5,945 nt of DNA from a virus (lineage: Duplodnaviria; Heunggongvirae; Uroviricota; Caudoviricetes). Made by a program: the position numbers and the translations under genes. How positions within the stretch are numbered: the first letter of the stretch is position 1; each line of letters starts with the position of its first letter. Under the pieces are notes generated by a model, which was not told the origin of the DNA, did no database searches, and saw only the letters and a program-made list of their open reading frames with translations. The stretch covers positions 1 through 5,945 of the IMG/VR virus record IMGVR_UViG_3300022692_000031. The stretch is one strand, 5' to 3'. Shown here piece after piece: positions 1 through 5,945 of the stretch.

Positions 1-105
1 GTCATAGTGACGGCACTGGTAACGAGGAAAGACCTCTGCGAGGTACGAATCCGAACCGGCCAGACGGAGGTCGCTGTTTTCACAGTCTACGAACCTGAGG
101 AGTAA
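1..105 (+). CDS. hokD: Hok-family type I membrane toxin, C-terminal part (5' end lies left of the window)
   Basis: Frame 1 from nt 1 reads VIVTALVTRKDLCEVRIRTGQTEVAVFTVYEPEE, then TAA at 103-105. This matches my recollection of the C-terminus of E. coli HokD/RelF. It is absent from the ORF track because the start is outside the window. Confidence 0.85.
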   Translation, partial: VIVTALVTRKDLCEVRIRTGQTEVAVFTVYEPEE

Positions 106-114
106 GAGTGACCT

Positions 115-142
115 GGGCGGGGTACTGATCCCATCCCCGCCC
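115..142 (+). other. GC-rich hairpin in the hok 3' UTR (8-bp stem GGGCGGGG/CCCCGCCC, 12-nt loop)
   Basis: Perfect inverted repeat read directly from the sequence. Hok-family mRNAs carry 3' fold-back structures; no T-tract follows, so it is not a terminator in itself. Confidence 0.4.
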
Positions 143-183
143 ACCTCTGATGTGTCAGGCATCCTCAATGCACCCGCACTTAA

Positions 184-208
184 CCCGCTTCGGCGGGGTT
201 TGTTTTTT
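184..208 (+). terminator. Rho-independent terminator after hok
   Basis: Stem CCCGC, loop TTCG, stem GCGGG, followed by GTTTGTTTTTT. Confidence 0.6.
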
Positions 209-279
209 CCTGGCATTCTGGTTTACAATTCGCACGTCAGCCTGAACAACTGGCACCTGCTGCGTCACCGGAGATCCCG

Positions 280-549
280 ATGGCGCACGATACCAGATTG
301 CACAATTCTGCCGACCTTGCCAGCAGGCATGGGCGGCGTTCTCACACATTCAAATCTGACTGGTTCCAGCATGACCCGTGCACTGAAGAACAGGCCGAAT
401 GGCTGATTCAGTGCTACCGCAGACGTGGTTACGAGTTTCAGAAAGATCTCAGCTTCGATCGTCGTCACTGGATAATCTCCGTCAGGCTCCCTTATTCCGA
501 ACGCCCACCGCGTCCGTCCCGCACATTCCAGCAGCGCATCTGGAGGTAA
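280..549 (+). CDS. Hypothetical small protein (89 aa); Rem-like by position between hok and the DUF968 gene
   Basis: ORF with GGAG 6 nt upstream of the ATG. Its TAA stop (547-549) abuts the GTG start of the next gene at 551, consistent with translational coupling. Assignment rests on synteny with the Qin prophage order hokD-rem-ydfU only; I do not recognise the sequence. Confidence 0.4.
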   Translation: MAHDTRLHNSADLASRHGRRSHTFKSDWFQHDPCTEEQAEWLIQCYRRRGYEFQKDLSFDRRHWIISVRLPYSERPPRPSRTFQQRIWR

Positions 550-550
550 C

Positions 551-1600
551 GTGCGGGTATTACTTCGACCTGTTCTGGTACCGGAACTCGGGATGGTGCT
601 CCTTAAGCCGGGCCGTGAATCAATGTCAGCATTCCATAACGGCAGAATATTGGTGGAGCCGGAACCGAAAAACATGCGCGGTCTGCCGTCCGGAGTCGTT
701 CCTGCCGTTCGCCAGCCGCTGGCAGAGGATAAAACATTACTGCCATTTTTCAGCGATGAGCGGGTTATTCGTGCAGCAGGTGGTGCAGGTGCACTGTCTG
801 ACTGGTTATTACGTCACGTGAAATCCTGCCAGTGGCCACACGGCGATTATCATCACAGCGAAACCGTCATTCACCGTTACGGTACCGGCGCGATGGTGTT
901 GTGCTGGCACTGTGACAACCAGCTGCGCGACCAGACATCAGAATCACTCGATCAACTTGCTCAGCAGAATCTGGCAGTCTGGATGATTGATGTTATACGT
1001 CACGCAATAAACGGTACGCAGGAGAGGGAGTTATCGCTGGCCGAATTATCCTGGTGGGCGGCCTGCAATCAGGTGGTGGATGCACTACCTGAGGCAGTAG
1101 CGCGTCGTTCGCTGGGATTACCGGTGGAAAAAATCCGCTCCGTATACCGTGAGAGTGACATCGTACCGGGAGAACAGACAGCCATCAGCATACTGAAGCA
1201 GCGCACAAAAAATATTGCGCTGCCACTTCACGTCCACCAGCAACAAAATCCACCACAGAAAAAAACGGTTGTCAGTATCGCTGTTGATCCGGAGTCTCCT
1301 GAATCGTTCATGAGGCGGCCTAAACGTCGCCGTTGGGTTAATGAGAAATACACGCGCTGGGTAAAGACACAGCCGTGTGCGTGTTGTGGTAAGCCTGCTG
1401 ACGATCCGCATCACCTGATTGGTCATGGTCAGGGGGGAATGGGGACAAAGGCCCACGATATTTTCACGCTACCGTTGTGCCGGGAGCACCACAACGAACT
1501 TCATGCAGACCCGCTGGAGTTTGAGAAAAAGTACGGCTCTCAGATTGAGTTAATTTTTCGTTTTCTTGATCACGCCTTTGCGACTGGCGTGCTCGGGTAA
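551..1600 (+). CDS. ydfU: DUF968/YdfU-like prophage protein with a C-terminal HNH-like Cys/His motif
   Basis: 349-aa ORF with GTG start and a GGAGG Shine-Dalgarno at 543-547. The C-terminus reads CACCGKPADDPHHLIGHG...LCREHHNELH, an HNH-like metal-binding arrangement. Size and position (hok, small ORF, this gene, then Q) match the Qin prophage ydfU locus; the symbol is given on synteny and size, not on a verified alignment. Confidence 0.75.
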   Translation: MRVLLRPVLVPELGMVLLKPGRESMSAFHNGRILVEPEPKNMRGLPSGVVPAVRQPLAEDKTLLPFFSDERVIRAAGGAGALSDWLLRHVKSCQWPHGDYHHSETVIHRYGTGAMVLCWHCDNQLRDQTSESLDQLAQQNLAVWMIDVIRHAINGTQERELSLAELSWWAACNQVVDALPEAVARRSLGLPVEKIRSVYRESDIVPGEQTAISILKQRTKNIALPLHVHQQQNPPQKKTVVSIAVDPESPESFMRRPKRRRWVNEKYTRWVKTQPCACCGKPADDPHHLIGHGQGGMGTKAHDIFTLPLCREHHNELHADPLEFEKKYGSQIELIFRFLDHAFATGVLG

Positions 1601-1612
1601 AAGAGGTGACTG

Positions 1613-1987
1613 ATGCTCATAGATTTGGTTTTACCTTACCCGCCGACGGTGAACACTTACTGGCGACGCCGTGGCAGCACATATTTTGTATCAAAAGCCG
1701 GGGAGCGTTATCGCCGTGCAGTGGCGCTTATTGTTCGCCAGCAGCGGCTGAAATTAAGCCTGTCCGGACGGCTGGCAATAAAAATTATTGCAGAGCCACC
1801 GGATAAGCGTCGTCGTGACCTGGACAACATTCTGAAAGCACCGCTGGATGCGCTGACGCATGCGGGACTGCTTATCGACGATGAACAGTTTGATGAAATC
1901 AATATTGTACGTGGTCAGCCAGTATCTGGTGGACGTCTGGGGGTGAAGATTTACCCCATAATGCTTGAAGGGCAGGTCAAAAAATGA
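1613..1987 (+). CDS. rusA: RusA crossover-junction endodeoxyribonuclease (Holliday junction resolvase)
   Basis: 124-aa ORF with AAGAGG 7 nt upstream of the ATG. The segment PDKRRRDLDNILKAPLDALTHAGLLIDDEQF aligns with the RusA core [31 protein letters not shown] as I remember it, including the acidic catalytic residues. Its stop overlaps the next start (ATGA at 1984-1987). Confidence 0.9.
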   Translation: MLIDLVLPYPPTVNTYWRRRGSTYFVSKAGERYRRAVALIVRQQRLKLSLSGRLAIKIIAEPPDKRRRDLDNILKAPLDALTHAGLLIDDEQFDEINIVRGQPVSGGRLGVKIYPIMLEGQVKK

Positions 1988-2805
1988 AACTGGAAGATTT
2001 ACCGAAATACTACTCCCCAAAATCCCCCGGCCTGACTGATGCATCGGCCTCAACGTCAAAAGATGCGCTGAGTATCACTGATGTGATGGCCGCGCAGGGC
2101 ATGACACAGAATCGGGCTGAGATGGGGTTTTCTGCGTTCCTTGGGAGAATGGGCATTAGTATGAATGACAGAGAGCGGGCAACAGAATTGCTGACAGAAT
2201 ATGCACTCAGTCGGTGTGATCGCGTGGCGGCGTTAAGAAAACTCCCGGCAGAAATAAAACCGGCAGTGATGCGTATTATGGCTTCGTATGCGTTTGAAGA
2301 TTATGCCCGTAGCGCGGCGAGCAAAAAACAGTGCCCCTGCTGTCACGGAAAAAAATTTATTGAAAGCGAGGTTTTTACAAACAAGATCCAGTATCCGGAT
2401 GGTAAGCCGCCAGTGTGGGCAAAGTGCACAAAAGGCGTGTATCCGTCTTACTGGGAGGAATGGAAAAAAGTCAGGGAGGTGGTAAAAGTTGCCTGTCCGG
2501 AGTGTGGCGGAAAGGGGGAGGTTTCCACCGCCTGTAAAGATTGTCGTGGGCGCGGTGTTGCCATTCATCGTGAAGAGTCGGAAAAACAGGGTGTGCCGGT
2601 TTTCAGAAACTGTCAGCGTTGTGGTGGGCGTGGCTATGAAAGATTACCTTCAACGGAGGCATTTAATGCCATATGTAATGTAACCGATGCCATATCTCTT
2701 GATACATGGAAAAAAACAGTTAAACGTTTTTACGATACGCTGGTGGTGCAGTTTGATATTGAAGAAGCATGGGCAGAACAACAACTGAAAAAGGTGACCA
2801 GATAG
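1984..2805 (+). CDS. Q-type late-gene antiterminator (QuuQ-like) with DnaJ-type CxxCxGxG zinc-finger repeats
   Basis: 273-aa ORF in the canonical position after rusA and before a promoter-terminator unit. It contains the repeats CPECGGKG, CKDCRGRG and CQRCGGRG plus CPCCHGKK. Size and cysteine repeats fit the large Qin-type Q family from memory. Confidence 0.7.
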   Translation: MKLEDLPKYYSPKSPGLTDASASTSKDALSITDVMAAQGMTQNRAEMGFSAFLGRMGISMNDRERATELLTEYALSRCDRVAALRKLPAEIKPAVMRIMASYAFEDYARSAASKKQCPCCHGKKFIESEVFTNKIQYPDGKPPVWAKCTKGVYPSYWEEWKKVREVVKVACPECGGKGEVSTACKDCRGRGVAIHREESEKQGVPVFRNCQRCGGRGYERLPSTEAFNAICNVTDAISLDTWKKTVKRFYDTLVVQFDIEEAWAEQQLKKVTR

Positions 2806-2810
2806 CTTTG

Positions 2811-2838
2811 TTGATTTTTCCCGAATCTGTGGTAAATT
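2811..2838 (+). promoter_or_regulatory. Candidate late promoter PR' (-35 TTGATT, 16-bp spacer, extended -10 TGgTAAATT)
   Basis: Sigma-70-like hexamers read directly, immediately downstream of the Q stop and about 50 nt upstream of the terminator at 2888-2909. This is the expected PR'-tR' arrangement of lambdoid late control. Confidence 0.35.
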
Positions 2839-2887
2839 TGCCCTAACGATGGGCGTTTTATGCCTGACGTTAGAAGATTTTTTACAC

Positions 2888-2909
2888 CCCGCCGCCTGGC
2901 GGGTTTTTT
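2888..2909 (+). terminator. Rho-independent terminator, candidate tR'
   Basis: Stem CCCGCC, loop GCCT, stem GGCGGG, followed by TTTTTTAT. Confidence 0.6.
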
Positions 2910-3031
2910 ATGACTGAAATCGCGTCAGTACAGTAAACGCGCTGGTGGCGGTGAATACCGGTCTTTCAGCTTGCTGGCTTTTTTGACAAGAGTTATTGGT
3001 GTGTCACGTTAACCGAAAAAGGGAAAAAGAC

Positions 3032-3229
3032 ATGCTGAAACAGCAGGATATGACAGAAACTGCCAGAGCAGTGTTTAATGAATTAAGCGTCACCGAACCG
3101 GCGACAGTCGGGGAGATTGCGCAGAATACTTACCTTTCACGCGAACGCTGCCAGTTAATACTGACCCAGCTTGTTATGGCGGGTCTGGCAGACTATCAGT
3201 TCGGTTGTTACAGACGCCTTCGGTCCTGA
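3032..3229 (+). CDS. Small (65 aa) putative winged-helix DNA-binding protein, PapI/FaeA-like pattern
   Basis: ATG at 3032 preceded by a purine-rich AAGGGAAAAAG. The segment TVGEIAQNTYLSRERCQLILTQLVMAGL resembles the helix-turn-helix region of the small PapI/FaeA family (compare [28 protein letters not shown]) from memory. Confidence 0.5.
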   Translation: MLKQQDMTETARAVFNELSVTEPATVGEIAQNTYLSRERCQLILTQLVMAGLADYQFGCYRRLRS

Positions 3230-3240
3230 AGGCTTTTTTA
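3216..3240 (+). terminator. Strong Rho-independent terminator overlapping the stop codon of the small ORF
   Basis: Perfect stem GCCTTC/GAAGGC with loop GGTCCT, followed by TTTTTTATTT. The TGA stop at 3227-3229 lies inside the hairpin. Confidence 0.65.
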
Positions 3241-3242
3241 TT

Positions 3243-3252
3243 TGTGGTAAAT
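3243..3252 (+). promoter_or_regulatory. Second copy of the 10-mer TGTGGTAAAT (extended -10-like element)
   Basis: The same 10-mer occurs at 2828-2837 inside the PR' candidate. This copy sits just after the terminator and upstream of the methyltransferase gene. Confidence 0.25.
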
Positions 3253-3328
3253 GGGCGGCTGGTGGGTGTTAGGGGCACTCACCAGCCATCTGCTCATGCG
3301 TCTGGATCACAAGCAAACCTCAGGCCCA

Positions 3329-3347
3329 CTGCTTTGCGCAAAAGCAG
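3329..3347 (+). promoter_or_regulatory. Near-perfect dyad CTGCTTTGCGCAAAAGCAG about 35 bp upstream of the methyltransferase start
   Basis: Inverted repeat read directly from the sequence, with 7-bp arms and one unpaired A. It could be an operator or an RNA hairpin. Confidence 0.3.
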
Positions 3348-3379
3348 AATGAGCCTATCAGAGACAGGCTTAATGATCC

Positions 3380-4438
3380 ATGCTTAACACTGTAAAAATA
3401 TCCAGTTGTGAGTTAATCAACGCCGACTGCCTGGAATTTATCCGGTCGTTACCCGAAAATTCTGTTGACCTGATAGTCACGGATCCGCCGTACTTTAAAG
3501 TGAAGCCTGAGGGCTGGGATAACCAGTGGAAGGGCGACGATGATTACCTGAAGTGGCTGGACCAGTGTCTTGCGCAGTTCTGGCGGGTGCTGAAACCTGC
3601 CGGAAGTCTTTACCTGTTCTGTGGCCATCGCCTGGCATCTGACATTGAAATCATGATGCGTGAACGCTTCAGTGTGCTGAACCATATTATCTGGGCGAAG
3701 CCGTCCGGACGCTGGAACGGGTGCAACAAGGAAAGCCTGAGGGCGTATTTCCCCGCCACAGAGCGCATTCTGTTCGCGGAACATTATCAGGGGCCGTATC
3801 GTCCGAAAGATGCCGGGTATGAGGCGAAGGGCAGGGCACTGAAACAGCATGTGATGGCACCGCTGATTGCTTACTTTCGTGATGCGCGTGCTGCCCTGGG
3901 GATAACGGCAAAACAGATTGCTGATGCCACAGGAAAGAAAAACATGGTGTCGCACTGGTTCAGTGCCAGTCAGTGGCAGTTACCGAACGAAAGCGATTAT
4001 CTGAAATTACAGGTGCTGTTTGCCCGGGTGGCAGAAGAGAAGCATCAGCGGGGTGAACTGGAAAAGCCCCACCACCAGCTGCTGGAGACGTATACTTCAC
4101 TGAACCGGCAGTATGCGGAACTGCAGAGTGAATATAAGCATCTGCGGCGGTATTTTGGCGTGACGGCGCAGGTGCCGTACACGGATGTGTGGACGCATAA
4201 ACCGGTGCAGTACTATCCCGGGAAACATCCGTGCGAAAAACCGGCAGAAATGCTGCAGCAGATAATCAGCGCGAGCAGTCGTCCGGGTGACCTGGTTGCA
4301 GATTTTTTCATGGGGTCGGGTTCGACAGTCAAAGCCGCGATGGCGCTGGGGCGGCGTGCAACTGGCGTTGAGCTGGAGACTGAACGTTTTGAGCAGACGG
4401 TCAGAGAAGTTCAGGATTTAGTCAGTCAGAACGGATGA
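3380..4438 (+). CDS. DNA methyltransferase, beta-class amino-methyltransferase (probably N6-adenine), with no restriction partner in the window
   Basis: 352-aa ORF. The catalytic motif IV DPPY (LIVTDPPYF) is near the N-terminus and the SAM-binding motif I FxGxG (DFFMGSGST) near the C-terminus, the beta-class order seen in CcrM, HinfI and RsrI methyltransferases. Confidence 0.9.
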   Translation: MLNTVKISSCELINADCLEFIRSLPENSVDLIVTDPPYFKVKPEGWDNQWKGDDDYLKWLDQCLAQFWRVLKPAGSLYLFCGHRLASDIEIMMRERFSVLNHIIWAKPSGRWNGCNKESLRAYFPATERILFAEHYQGPYRPKDAGYEAKGRALKQHVMAPLIAYFRDARAALGITAKQIADATGKKNMVSHWFSASQWQLPNESDYLKLQVLFARVAEEKHQRGELEKPHHQLLETYTSLNRQYAELQSEYKHLRRYFGVTAQVPYTDVWTHKPVQYYPGKHPCEKPAEMLQQIISASSRPGDLVADFFMGSGSTVKAAMALGRRATGVELETERFEQTVREVQDLVSQNG

Positions 4439-4478
4439 TATTGCAGGATTAGTTACGTACCGTTATTATCCTGCGCCC

Positions 4479-4554
4479 GGCCCTTTAGCTCAGTGGTGAG
4501 AGCGAGCGACTCATAATCGCCAGGTCGCTGGTTCAAATCCAGCAAGGGCCACCA
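4479..4554 (+). tRNA. tRNA with anticodon CAU, ileX/ileZ-like (tRNA-Ile2, lysidine type; an anticodon-only caller would say Met)
   Basis: Manually folded 76-nt cloverleaf: acceptor GGCCCTT/AAGGGCC, D-stem GCTC/GAGC, anticodon loop CTCATAA, T-arm GCTGG-TTCAAAT-CCAGC, encoded CCA. The overall sequence closely resembles E. coli ileX as I remember it. Confidence 0.85.
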
Positions 4555-4563
4555 TATCACATA

Positions 4564-4640
4564 CCGCCATTAGCTCATCGGGATAGAGCGCCAGCCTTCG
4601 AAGCTGGCTGCGCGGGGTTCGAGTCCTCGATGGCGGTCCA
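4564..4640 (+). tRNA. tRNA-Arg, anticodon UCG
   Basis: Manually folded 77-nt cloverleaf: acceptor CCGCCAT/ATGGCGG, D-stem GCTC/GAGC, anticodon stem CCAGC/GCTGG with loop CTTCGAA, T-arm CGGGG-TTCGAGT-CCTCG, encoded CCA. The 5' C1 is unusual but pairs with G72. Confidence 0.75.
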
Positions 4641-4696
4641 TTATCTGCATTATGCGTTGTTGGTTCTGATGAGTGAATCATTGTCTTTTGAGCAAC

Positions 4697-4718
4697 AGGC
4701 TATCATATAAGATAGCCT
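4697..4718 (+). other. Perfect 8-bp inverted repeat AGGCTATC-ATATAA-GATAGCCT downstream of the tRNAs
   Basis: Read directly from the sequence. No immediate T-tract; it may be a processing or regulatory hairpin or a protein-binding dyad. Confidence 0.3.
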
Positions 4719-4918
4719 CAGACTTCCTTGTTTATTCTCGCCGGATGCTTCGTAGATATTTGCAGGCATCTGTATGCAGGGGTATTATTGCGGCATATAT
4801 CATCCGGAAAAATAAAAACTACATGCTGATCCGGAGATGATAGTTACAAGTCCTCCCGGATCCCGCATATTTACTATATTTTATAGATAATTGTTCTTGT
4901 TAATATGGAGATGGATAA

Positions 4919-5347
4919 ATGTATTGCCGTGCTGTACCGGTTCTTGTTTTGATATTAGCCAGTCTGACAACTGGCTGCACAAAAGATGTATCGACAAATA
5001 ATCATGATGCTTCTCTGTATCACTCAGATAAATTAATAAAGTCGCAAAATTTGAGCTCATCGGAACGTACCCCTGATGCCAGTGAAGAAATCCGGCAGTA
5101 TGCCATTCAGGTCAGGAAAGCCATAGAAGAACAGTTAAAGGATGCGAGTAAGTATTCAGGAAAAGAGTGTTCACTGAGAATGTATATGGCCCCGAATGGT
5201 CTTCTGCTACAGGTTAAAAGAGAAAGCGGTGATCCCGATTTATGTCGTGAAGCGATGAATGCAGTAAAGAATGCTGATATACCATCACCACCGTCTTCAG
5301 GAGTATATAAAGCATTTAGAAATGGCGTGCTGGATTTTAAACTCTGA
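4919..5347 (+). CDS. Putative secreted lipoprotein homologous to TolA C-terminal domain III
   Basis: 142-aa ORF with GGAG 8 nt upstream of the ATG. The N-terminus has a hydrophobic signal (AVPVLVLILASL) followed by LTTGC, a lipobox-like cysteine. Residues about 60-142 align at roughly 50 percent identity with my recollection of the E. coli TolA C-terminus (YAGQIKSAIESKFYDASSYAGKTCTLRIKLAPDGMLLDIKPEGGDPALCQAALAAAKLAKIPKPPSQAVYEVFKNAPLDFKP), including both cysteines. Confidence 0.8.
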   Translation: MYCRAVPVLVLILASLTTGCTKDVSTNNHDASLYHSDKLIKSQNLSSSERTPDASEEIRQYAIQVRKAIEEQLKDASKYSGKECSLRMYMAPNGLLLQVKRESGDPDLCREAMNAVKNADIPSPPSSGVYKAFRNGVLDFKL

Positions 5348-5350
5348 CAG

Positions 5351-5380
5351 GGGGAGAAGATTTTCTCCTGTCCTGATGAT
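5351..5380 (+). terminator. Weak terminator-like hairpin just after the lipoprotein stop
   Basis: Stem GGAGAA, loop GATT, stem TTCTCC, followed by TGTCCTGATGATTTTGG. Imperfect T-tract. Confidence 0.3.
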
Positions 5381-5636
5381 TTTGGGGCGCTGGAAAGATA
5401 TTGTGCTGTGAAGTGTTAAATCCCTCACAATTCAGTAAGTTGACAGTTGCCTGTCAGACTGAGCATTTGTTAAAAAAATTTCGCATGGTGAATCCCCCTG
5501 TGCGGAGGGGCGACTGGTGAACGGTATGATCTCTTTGATGATCGTAAGCGAGAATACGCGGGTTTGGTGTCACCGGGCTGAACTCACCGGGAGGCACCCG
5601 GCACCATGCTCATGGTGATACAGAAATGCGGCTTCA

Positions 5637-5660
5637 GCCCCTCTCCGGAGGGGCTTTCTT
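5637..5660 (+). terminator. Rho-independent terminator for + strand transcripts
   Basis: Stem GCCCCTC, loop TCCG, stem GAGGGGC, followed by TTTCTT. Confidence 0.5.
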
Positions 5661-5666
5661 ATGGAC

Positions 5667-5695
5667 AAAAAAAGCCCGCGCTGGGAGACGCGGGC
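5667..5695 (-). terminator. Rho-independent terminator for - strand transcripts
   Basis: On the - strand this reads GCCCGCG-TCTCCCAG-CGCGGGC followed by seven T. With the + strand terminator 7 bp to its left it forms a convergent pair. Confidence 0.55.
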
Positions 5696-5814
5696 GGCAA
5701 GGAATAAACAATAAAACGTGAAGTAATACTTCAACTGGCGAATAATACCCGACAGTAATCACTCTGCGCAATAGCGTGGCCTTTTTCGAATTGCGGGCTG
5801 TAGTCTCCCTTCTG

Positions 5815-5945
5815 CCGGGTGTCCTGGTTGCAGATTTCTTCATGGGGTAGGGTTCGGCAGTTAAAGCAGCGATGGCGCTGGGGCGTCGTGCAACTGGCGT
5901 TGAGCTGGATACCGGGCGTTTTGAACAGACTGCGCAGGAAATCAG
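5815..5945 (+). pseudogene. Decayed 3' fragment of a second DNA methyltransferase gene (runs past the window edge)
   Basis: About 130 nt are roughly 85-90 percent identical to the 3' end of the intact methyltransferase gene (4283-4418). In the equivalent frame, motif I reads FMG-stop-GSA because TAG at 5848-5850 replaces TCG; there is no upstream coding sequence or start. Confidence 0.75.

Follow-up and report, generated by a model that had tools for sequence, protein, structure and literature searches.

A putative second terminator ahead of an adenine methyltransferase gene in a lambda-Q-type late operon

We analysed a stretch of 5,945 nucleotides (nt) from a Caudoviricetes virus (IMG/VR record IMGVR_UViG_3300022692_000031, positions 1 to 5,945; hereafter the window), which is the nin and late-regulatory region of an Escherichia-type lambdoid prophage. 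Our subject is a hairpin followed by a U-tract (H1, 3216-3243) at the end of a small winged-helix gene and ahead of a DNA methyltransferase gene of the M.EcoGI/M.EcoGII family. From its sequence we think it fairly likely that H1 is a Rho-independent terminator, the second in series past the terminator tR', that it ends the small gene in a late operon of the lambda-Q type, and that the methyltransferase would be off until the antiterminator Q acts.

In the mechanism that we propose, the late promoter PR' would fire constitutively in the lysogen, with its transcripts ending at tR'. Transcripts that leak through, and stray ones begun between the terminators, would be stopped again at 3216-3243, and the M.EcoGII-type methyltransferase would thereby stay off. 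Upon induction, Q would load onto polymerase paused at the AACGAT of PR', and the Q-modified polymerase would ignore both terminators and transcribe the late operon from the small gene and the methyltransferase onward. Pairing of the methyltransferase start codon in the leader would be a probable added lock, on translation. The elements concerned are these.

1984 to 2805, + strand: gene for an antiterminator of the lambda-Q family (Pfam PF03589, E = 3.8e-51; PDB 7UBM, E = 2.5e-41)
2811 to 2850, + strand: late promoter PR', by alignment to the PR' regions of lambda, phiSTEC1575 and Kosakonia
2888 to 2910, + strand: tR', first terminator of the late operon (CCCGCC-GCCT-GGCGGG, then TTTTTTA; -12.6 kcal/mol)
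3032 to 3229, + strand: small gene for a winged-helix protein of 65 amino acids (aa) (phrog_331, E = 2.5e-37; AlphaFold2 model)
3216 to 3243, + strand: putative terminator H1, hairpin 3216-3233 and U-tract 3234-3243, from anatomy, fold and the hairpins of homologues
3243 to 3252, + strand: second copy of TGTGGTAAAT, the local variant of the leader motif TGTG(R)AAATGGGCGG
3251 to 3297, + strand: H2, the long leader hairpin (-30.7 kcal/mol, z = -5.3)
3300 to 3383, + strand: leader domain 3, predicted to pair the A of the methyltransferase AUG (-31.4 kcal/mol, z = -3.8)
3380 to 4438, + strand: gene for a beta-class N6-adenine DNA methyltransferase of the M.EcoGI/GII family (Pfam PF01555, E = 5e-44)

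H1 and its place in the late operon

Hairpin and U-tract. The stem-loop GCCTTCG-GTCC-TGAAGGC (3216-3233) has seven pairs, four of them G-C and one G-U, and a 4-nt loop. The U-tract TTTTTTATTT (3234-3243) has T at 9 of 10 positions and begins at the base right after the stem. Folded alone, H1 reaches -9.8 kcal/mol (z = -2.5; 5 of 200 shuffles fold as well). Intrinsic terminators were taken to have a G+C-rich hairpin of 5-14 base pairs (bp) with a loop of 3-8 nt, and H1 falls within these bounds; it further combines its stem with a 3' U-tract, a position at the end of the small open reading frame (ORF) in the direction of the genes (+ strand), and compensatory changes of the hairpin in relatives. 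On the reverse strand no T-run was found past the hairpin. The 3' arm opens with the stop codon of the small ORF, TGA at 3227-3229. The original prediction, which had a terminator overlapping this stop codon and a 10-mer immediately 3' of it, is borne out in both respects (3216-3243, and 3243-3252 for the 10-mer). It also called the terminator strong; that suits the excellent U-tract but not the stem, which is moderate (-9.8 kcal/mol against -12.6 for tR'). Terminator-like sites in the window number 15, compared with 5.7 +/- 2.5 expected.

Q, PR' and tR'. The Q protein matches lambda Q (PDB 7UBM) over residues 1-113 and 183-273, and residues 114-182 (window 2323-2529) form an insert of ~69 aa with CXXC, DnaJ-like zinc-finger motifs. 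The sequence directly past the Q gene aligns with lambda PR' (lambda, GGGTAAATTTGACTCAACGATGGG; window, TGGTAAATTTGCCCTAACGATGGG). It holds a -35 element TTGATT at 2811-2816, an extended -10 element TGGTAAATT at 2830-2838 and, at 2845-2850, AACGAT, which aligns with the sigma-dependent pause element of lambda; the spacer between -35 and -10 differs from that of lambda. By homology the +1 position would be near 2845. The tR' hairpin (2888-2903) and its T6 run (-12.6 kcal/mol, z = -2.9) lie ~45 nt past PR', and the predicted PR'-tR' RNA (2845-2910) is about 66 nt long. The extended -10 pattern TGNTANNNT has only two matches on the + strand, one at PR' (2830) and the other ahead of a lipoprotein gene (4898).

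For Shiga toxin (Stx) phages it is established that PR' is constitutive, that its transcripts stop at tR' and that Q allows read-through after induction (PMC7547250). Transcripts from PR' without Q should thus stop at about 2910, ahead of the small gene, and H1 is therefore a second barrier and not the primary one. This alters what had been drawn from H1, namely that upstream transcripts would halt there unless Q were present and that methyltransferase expression is on that account Q-dependent. Halting at H1 stands, as the action of a second terminator in series, and Q read-through is still the likeliest route of expression, given the terminator features, their gene-ward direction, the late operon with Q and PR', and an adjoining gene of the M.EcoGII type, a type reported to be silent in lysogens. 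The step that does not stand is from H1 alone to Q dependence, as tR' already stops the transcripts of PR'. Termination at H1 and read-through by Q are what we infer from these features; the position of the methyltransferase gene gives good support to expression under Q, and we class it as very probably a late gene that depends on Q.

Synteny. Best upstream matches were recorded for 79 genomes. A Q gene is the best match in 43, lying 0.5-1.5 kb upstream of the methyltransferase on the same strand, and these Q genes are of at least three unrelated types (lambda-like; a 126-aa type, as in phiP27 and PhiR5_1; and the type of phage Flotzy). In 21 further genomes the best match is the DUF968 gene of the nin region, which precedes Q in the window. 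The small gene is directly upstream of the methyltransferase in 62 of the 79, and the remaining 17 loci keep the leader without it. With a Q gene upstream whatever its type, and with the small gene in 62/79, the module is consistently first in the late operon. One annotation error can mislead such counts: the GenBank 'antitermination protein Q' of phage 1720a-02 (L206, 42-1031; 329 aa) is a DUF968/YdfU-type protein, and it was counted apart from true Q matches. In phiP27 and many Stx2a phages the module is located between Q and the tRNA-stx2 genes (see also PMC8456039), so that late transcripts must cross H1 to reach stx2.

Methyltransferase. The enzyme is identical at 347 of 352 residues (99%) to that of phage 1720a-02, which Murray et al. 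(2018, PMC5778455) named as very similar to M.EcoGII, a non-specific adenine methyltransferase. Its membership of the M.EcoGI/GII family is assigned by sequence through the 1720a-02 enzyme, and its non-specific activity is assumed on the same basis. M.EcoGI and M.EcoGII are not expressed in normal lysogen growth, their constitutive expression damages the cell, and the authors suggest that the gene is turned on only when the prophage excises (PMC5778455). Since enzymes of this type harm the cell when constitutive, tight silencing has a clear reason.

Small gene. The 65-aa protein, which matches phrog_331, has 340 homologues, and PGAP names it 'TrmB family'. Its AlphaFold2 model (predicted local distance difference test score, pLDDT, 91) has three helices and a beta wing, and the nearest folds are the winged helix-turn-helix domains of IclR and MarR regulators and of O-methyltransferases. 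A Com-type zinc-finger activator was looked for upstream of the methyltransferase and not found there; the small protein is, from its model, a stand-alone winged helix. A promoter of its own for the small gene was considered at a perfect TTGACA (2983-2988) and rejected, as no usable -10 lies at 16-18 bp and relatives read TCGACA.

The H1 hairpin in relatives

Two samples were compared, about 80 phage contigs with the leader motif as their anchor and the 79 loci, which come from different species and were found via the methyltransferase protein. Of 47 distinct leaders, 33 have a hairpin at the homologous position, where shuffles give 4.4 +/- 2.0 (maximum 12), and in these 33 it ends at most 14 nt from the conserved motif TGTG(R)AAATGGGCGG. 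The hairpin is thus widespread in Enterobacterales, and the genera that have it include Escherichia, Salmonella, Klebsiella, Enterobacter, Citrobacter, Kluyvera, Mixta, Buttiauxella and Mangrovibacter, among others. More than 15 different complementary arm pairs occur among the leaders, for example GCCTTC/GAAGGC, GCCTCC/GGAGGC or GGGGGC, GCTGCC/GGCAGT, GTCGTC/GACGGC, CCGCCAG/CTGGTGG and CCTCGC/GCGGGG. Because the arms vary widely yet stay complementary, the hairpin is under selection. Wherever the small gene is present, its stop codon falls in the hairpin loop or the 3' arm.

Several observations weigh against H1 as a terminator in a Q-controlled operon. With a good T-tract defined as at least 5 T in the 8 bases 3' of the stem, only 18 of the 47 leaders have one; many read TTTCTGCTGTG or worse, and several have no T-tract at all (GAATCTGC, TACCCCAT). 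No hairpin was found in the leaders of Providencia, Proteus and Morganella. Since T-tracts are mostly poor and some genera lack the hairpin, the conserved part is the hairpin and not a complete terminator. A ribosome following closely could suppress termination, the stop codon being inside H1. Finally, a promoter scan found no sigma-70-like site on the + strand between 854 and 4758, which favours the proposed mechanism, but the same scan missed PR' itself (8 of 12 matches), and its lack of hits is therefore weak evidence against internal promoters.

These facts bear on another account, in which the conserved role of the hairpin is that of a structural part of the mRNA and not termination, the full U-tract having been gained secondarily in this E. 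coli lineage. The hairpin might then be an intercistronic attenuator, might stabilise the 3' end once the mRNA is processed, or might be coupled through the stop codon inside it to translation of the small ORF. It would fit the retention of the hairpin in about 70-85% of leaders beside so few good T-tracts, the stop codon in the loop or 3' arm at loci of the Escherichia, Salmonella and Xenorhabdus types, and the loci where the small gene is lost (L131 and L132 of Trabulsiella; phage Flotzy) and the hairpin still stays with the methyltransferase leader. We nonetheless hold it to be unlikely. In the window and its close relatives the U-tract is near-perfect, among the best of all, and is kept across about 60 IMG/VR phage copies. 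In Kosakonia (L130) and Enterobacter (L136) the leader directly follows PR' and tR', and the place of H1 is taken there by the PR'-proximal terminator, tR' itself. A GC-rich hairpin followed by UUUCUGCUGUG can also still terminate partially. Termination is the best reading for H1 here, and the ancestral role of the hairpin was not necessarily that alone.

The methyltransferase leader and the repeated 10-mer

Leader structure. A non-coding leader of 137 nt, beginning at 3243, precedes the methyltransferase ATG. Between genera its identity is 67-83%, compared with 33-50% at the third-codon positions of the gene, and it is on that account under strong purifying selection. It travels with M.EcoGII-type methyltransferases in prophages of Escherichia, Salmonella, Klebsiella, Enterobacter, Proteus and Providencia, and in a shorter form in Xenorhabdus and Photorhabdus. 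The hairpin H2 (3251-3297) joins ATGGGC/GCTCAT at its base and GGCTGGTGGGTG/CACTCACCAGCC in 20 bp; it folds at -30.7 kcal/mol on the + strand against -20.4 on the - strand, with many G-U pairs and with compensatory changes in Providencia and Proteus. In domain 3 (3300-3383), UGGAUCA (3303-3309) is predicted to pair with UGAUCCA (3374-3380), covering the A of the AUG. No Shine-Dalgarno sequence was found ahead of this AUG.

In an alignment of 46 sequences, 14 pairs are changed on both sides, against 5.8 +/- 1.5 in column shuffles, of which 0 in 500 attain this number, and against 2-10 in slid controls. In 35 of 44 homologues the predicted energy with the start sequestered is within 1 kcal/mol of that of the unconstrained minimum free energy (MFE) structure; the AUG is predicted to be paired in the MFE structure of nearly all homologues, and covariation is moderate. 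On these models translation is probably locked by the leader as well, on top of the transcriptional lock. The original prediction made no mention of a conserved leader that pairs the start codon.

No known RNA family was matched by the leader: cmscan with Rfam 15 gives no hit in 2800-3400 at E <= 1. Elsewhere in the window Rfam matches two tRNAs, STnc100 (5454-5666) and three weak hits below gathering scores, of which two overlap the tRNA genes and one lies at 5636-5697. The leader (3243-3383) is a candidate new cis-regulatory RNA.

We regard it as possible, though only tentatively, that H1 is the first element of an undescribed cis-regulatory leader of ~170 nt that gates translation of a toxic methyltransferase, perhaps with the winged-helix protein, as a lambdoid counterpart of com-mom of phage Mu. 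Its parts may be H1, the TGTGR strand, the 20-bp H2 and the AUG-pairing domain. A stronger form, in which post-transcriptional control dominates and the terminator is secondary, is compatible with termination at H1, and we rate it as rather improbable. In it the leader would pair the start codon until opened by a further factor, which might be the small winged-helix protein (compare Mu Com on mom mRNA), RNase III cutting the 20-bp H2, or a refolding via the 5' TGTGR strand. Leader identity between genera, the two-sided pair changes, the paired AUG lacking a Shine-Dalgarno sequence and the pairing of the small gene with the methyltransferase in 62/79 genomes all favour such control, and there is a precedent in com-mom and in the com-like genes ahead of non-specific adenine methyltransferases in Mu-like prophages (PMC3299994). 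Against it, the small protein is a winged helix and not a Com-type zinc finger, 17/79 loci have the leader without the small gene, and the alternative helix P1 shows no covariation and is 3-9 kcal/mol less stable.

This P1 helix, UGUGG (3243-3247) with UCACA (3307-3311), was considered as an ON state. Both its strands are invariant, it is compatible with at least 40 of the 46 sequences, and its deficit of 3-9 kcal/mol is relative to the OFF state; it is retained only as a speculation. Of two other candidates, one was rejected and one appears unlikely. An ORF of 33 aa (3251-3352, MGGWW...) might have encoded a tandem-Trp leader peptide, but the frame shifts with the length of the H2 loop (6 or 7 nt), and the peptide is unconserved in Providencia, Proteus and Xenorhabdus; because the loop indels break the frame, we take the ORF as not coding. 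H2 as a DNA palindrome, an operator for the winged-helix protein, is disfavoured by G-U pairs that exist on the + strand only (38 of 46 sequences have G-U at pair 71-113, for example), by the 10 kcal/mol better folding of that strand and by the persistence of H2 without the small gene.

All 46 aligned leaders have a GATC (Dam site) 1-5 nt ahead of the methyltransferase ATG (window 3374-3379). It pairs with a conserved GRTC (3304-3307), and either RNA pairing or Dam methylation could underlie its conservation. The Xenorhabdus and Photorhabdus loci (L171-L192) have a shorter leader, with H2 enclosed by a GGUGAA/UUCACC helix; L190-L192 lack H2, and there this helix itself forms the hairpin. Several of these loci have a second hairpin followed by T-runs, like a terminator.

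Repeated 10-mer. TGTGGTAAAT occurs exactly twice in the window, at 2828-2837, within the extended -10 of PR', and at 3243-3252, where it starts on the last T of the H1 T-run. By an arithmetic estimate, a sequence of 5.9 kb should hold about 17 exact 10-mer pairs on the same strand by chance. The repeat, a pattern picked after the sequence was seen, is by itself statistically unremarkable.

The original prediction offered, as an alternative to Q read-through, that the second copy is the -10 of a Q-independent promoter for the methyltransferase and the genes downstream. All 10 nt of the copy agree with the extended -10 of PR', its TG dinucleotide is correctly spaced for TGgTAAATG, and 17 of 46 homologues read TGTGAAAAT, with A at -11 and T at -7. 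The window itself fits poorly: the hexamer is TAAATG, with G at -7 where a near-invariant T is expected, TGNTANNNT has no match at 3243-3253, and the best -35 agrees at 3 of 6 positions. Across relatives the would-be -11 base is G in 29 of 46. The motif varies as TGTGGTAAT (phiP27), TGTAGTAAT, TGTGAAAAT, TGTGGAAAT and TGTGAAAT; other genera read TGTGGAAAT, TGTGAAAAT or TGTGAAAT, and there is no fixed -10 register in surroundings that are almost invariant. Relatives of the phiP27 type have lost one A (TGTGGTAATGGG in phiP27, TGTAGTAATGGG in close relatives), and this 1-nt indel destroys the register, the remaining leader being conserved. A constitutive promoter would also contradict the reported silence and toxicity of M.EcoGI/GII (PMC5778455). 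TGTGR can be explained as RNA, since the invariant UCACA (3307-3311) is its complement; Xenorhabdus and Photorhabdus clearly show the homologous helix, GGUGAA/UUCACC. We therefore see hardly any chance of a promoter here. The second 10-mer appears better explained as the 5' edge of the conserved structured leader, and the two copies, which have unrelated functions as the extended -10 of PR' and as the opening bases of the leader, match by coincidence.

GGGCG follows both copies, 13 nt later at PR' (2828-2855) and directly in the leader (3243-3257). A relic duplication of PR' (TGTGGTAAAT-13 nt-GGGCG against TGTGGTAAAT-GGGCG) was set aside as suggestive and statistically weak; it could be coincidence.

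Related systems and the rest of the window

Known systems. The window resembles the late operons of lambda, 82, 21 and 933W/Sp5 in its lambda-family Q, in PR' with the -10 TAAATT and AACGAT, and in the promoter-proximal terminator; lambda-type late operons also have further intrinsic terminators before the late genes and accessory genes between Q and the lysis genes. It differs in the zinc-finger insert of Q and in H1, a putative terminator that is second in series and overlaps a stop codon. The 6S RNA of lambda is 194 nt long, against the about 66 nt predicted for the PR'-tR' RNA. StxS-L has 258 nt (Sy et al. 2020, PMC7547250), and the position and logic of 2845-2910 are those of StxS and lambda 6S RNA, a constitutive promoter with immediate termination, but no sequence similarity to them was seen and 2845-2910 has no Rfam match.

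The 99% identity to the phage 1720a-02 enzyme links the window to the work on M.EcoGI and M.EcoGII, and the silence and harm described there fit a double terminator and a paired start codon; the Q/PR' context, the terminator, the small gene and the leader are not described in that paper (PMC5778455).

With Mu com-mom and the com-like genes (PMC3299994) the window shares a late, harmful DNA-modifying, anti-restriction enzyme with a small gene directly upstream. An mRNA structure that would occlude the start of the modification gene is predicted in the window. The small winged-helix protein has no sequence homology to the Com zinc finger. Control of com-mom works through C protein, Dam and OxyR, in contrast to the lambdoid Q antitermination of the window. 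The resemblance is a lead suggested by analogy, not a finding.

Enzymes of the M.EcoGII type methylate every accessible adenine and harm the cell, yet sit on prophages in thousands of E. coli genomes. How they are silenced and fired bears on phage escape from restriction and other DNA-targeting defences, on the reading of methylomes of pathogenic E. coli, and on Shiga toxin expression in Stx2 phages whose late transcripts cross the module before stx2. The terminator H1 is a routine detail within the Q paradigm, ordinary lambdoid biology; the conserved leader could repay experiments.

Other features. The rest of the window holds the following.

551 to 1600: DUF968 gene
1613 to 1987: RusA gene
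4479 to 4554, + strand: tRNA-Met(CAT)
4564 to 4640, + strand: tRNA-Arg(TCG)
4919 to 5347, + strand: gene for a lipoprotein with a TolA C-terminal domain (Pfam PF06519, E = 5.7e-23)
5454 to 5666: match to the small RNA STnc100 (Rfam, 172 bits, E = 4e-40)
5815 to 5930: remnant (116 nt) of the 3' end of a second methyltransferase gene

The nearest complete E. coli genomes match at 93% across most of the window, and 2700-3500 matches an O111:H8 prophage at 99.4%; the region is matched in 2384 of 5426 complete E. coli genomes. Downstream, the O111:H8 relative has holin and lysozyme genes on the same strand, which makes the region from Q onward the start of the late operon.

The methyltransferase, the tRNAs and the lipoprotein had been predicted to be expressed together, which is unsafe. 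The lipoprotein gene is in an island of low GC content (0.39-0.43, against 0.50-0.56 elsewhere) with promoter-like sites at 4759-4788 and 4898-4906, and in phages such as mEp460 it adjoins Q without the methyltransferase. In the Stx2 phage Sp5 a separate promoter has been mapped upstream of the tRNAs (Sy et al. 2020, PMC7547250). In view of these sites, Q dependence is not to be assumed for the tRNAs or the lipoprotein. Judged by sequence, the lipoprotein is probably an independent moron expressed from the prophage, outside the terminator logic. With its TolA domain it could, speculatively, be a decoy for TolA-using colicins or filamentous phages.

The 116-nt remnant at 5815-5930 is 90% identical to 4283-4398, the 3' end of the methyltransferase gene, and reaches the window edge; from it the late region can be recognised as a recombination mosaic. 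Two sharp mosaic joints were seen. At 2888/2889, many Stx2 phages with unrelated Q genes are homologous from exactly the tR' hairpin onward. At about 3268-3278, within or just past H2, PhiR5_1 and phiSTEC1575-Stx2k diverge, and other genes replace the methyltransferase. The STnc100 match is full-length and is followed by convergent terminators at 5636-5655 (+ strand) and 5695-5674 (- strand); in PhiR5_1 the STnc100 element directly follows the small gene, the methyltransferase block being missing.

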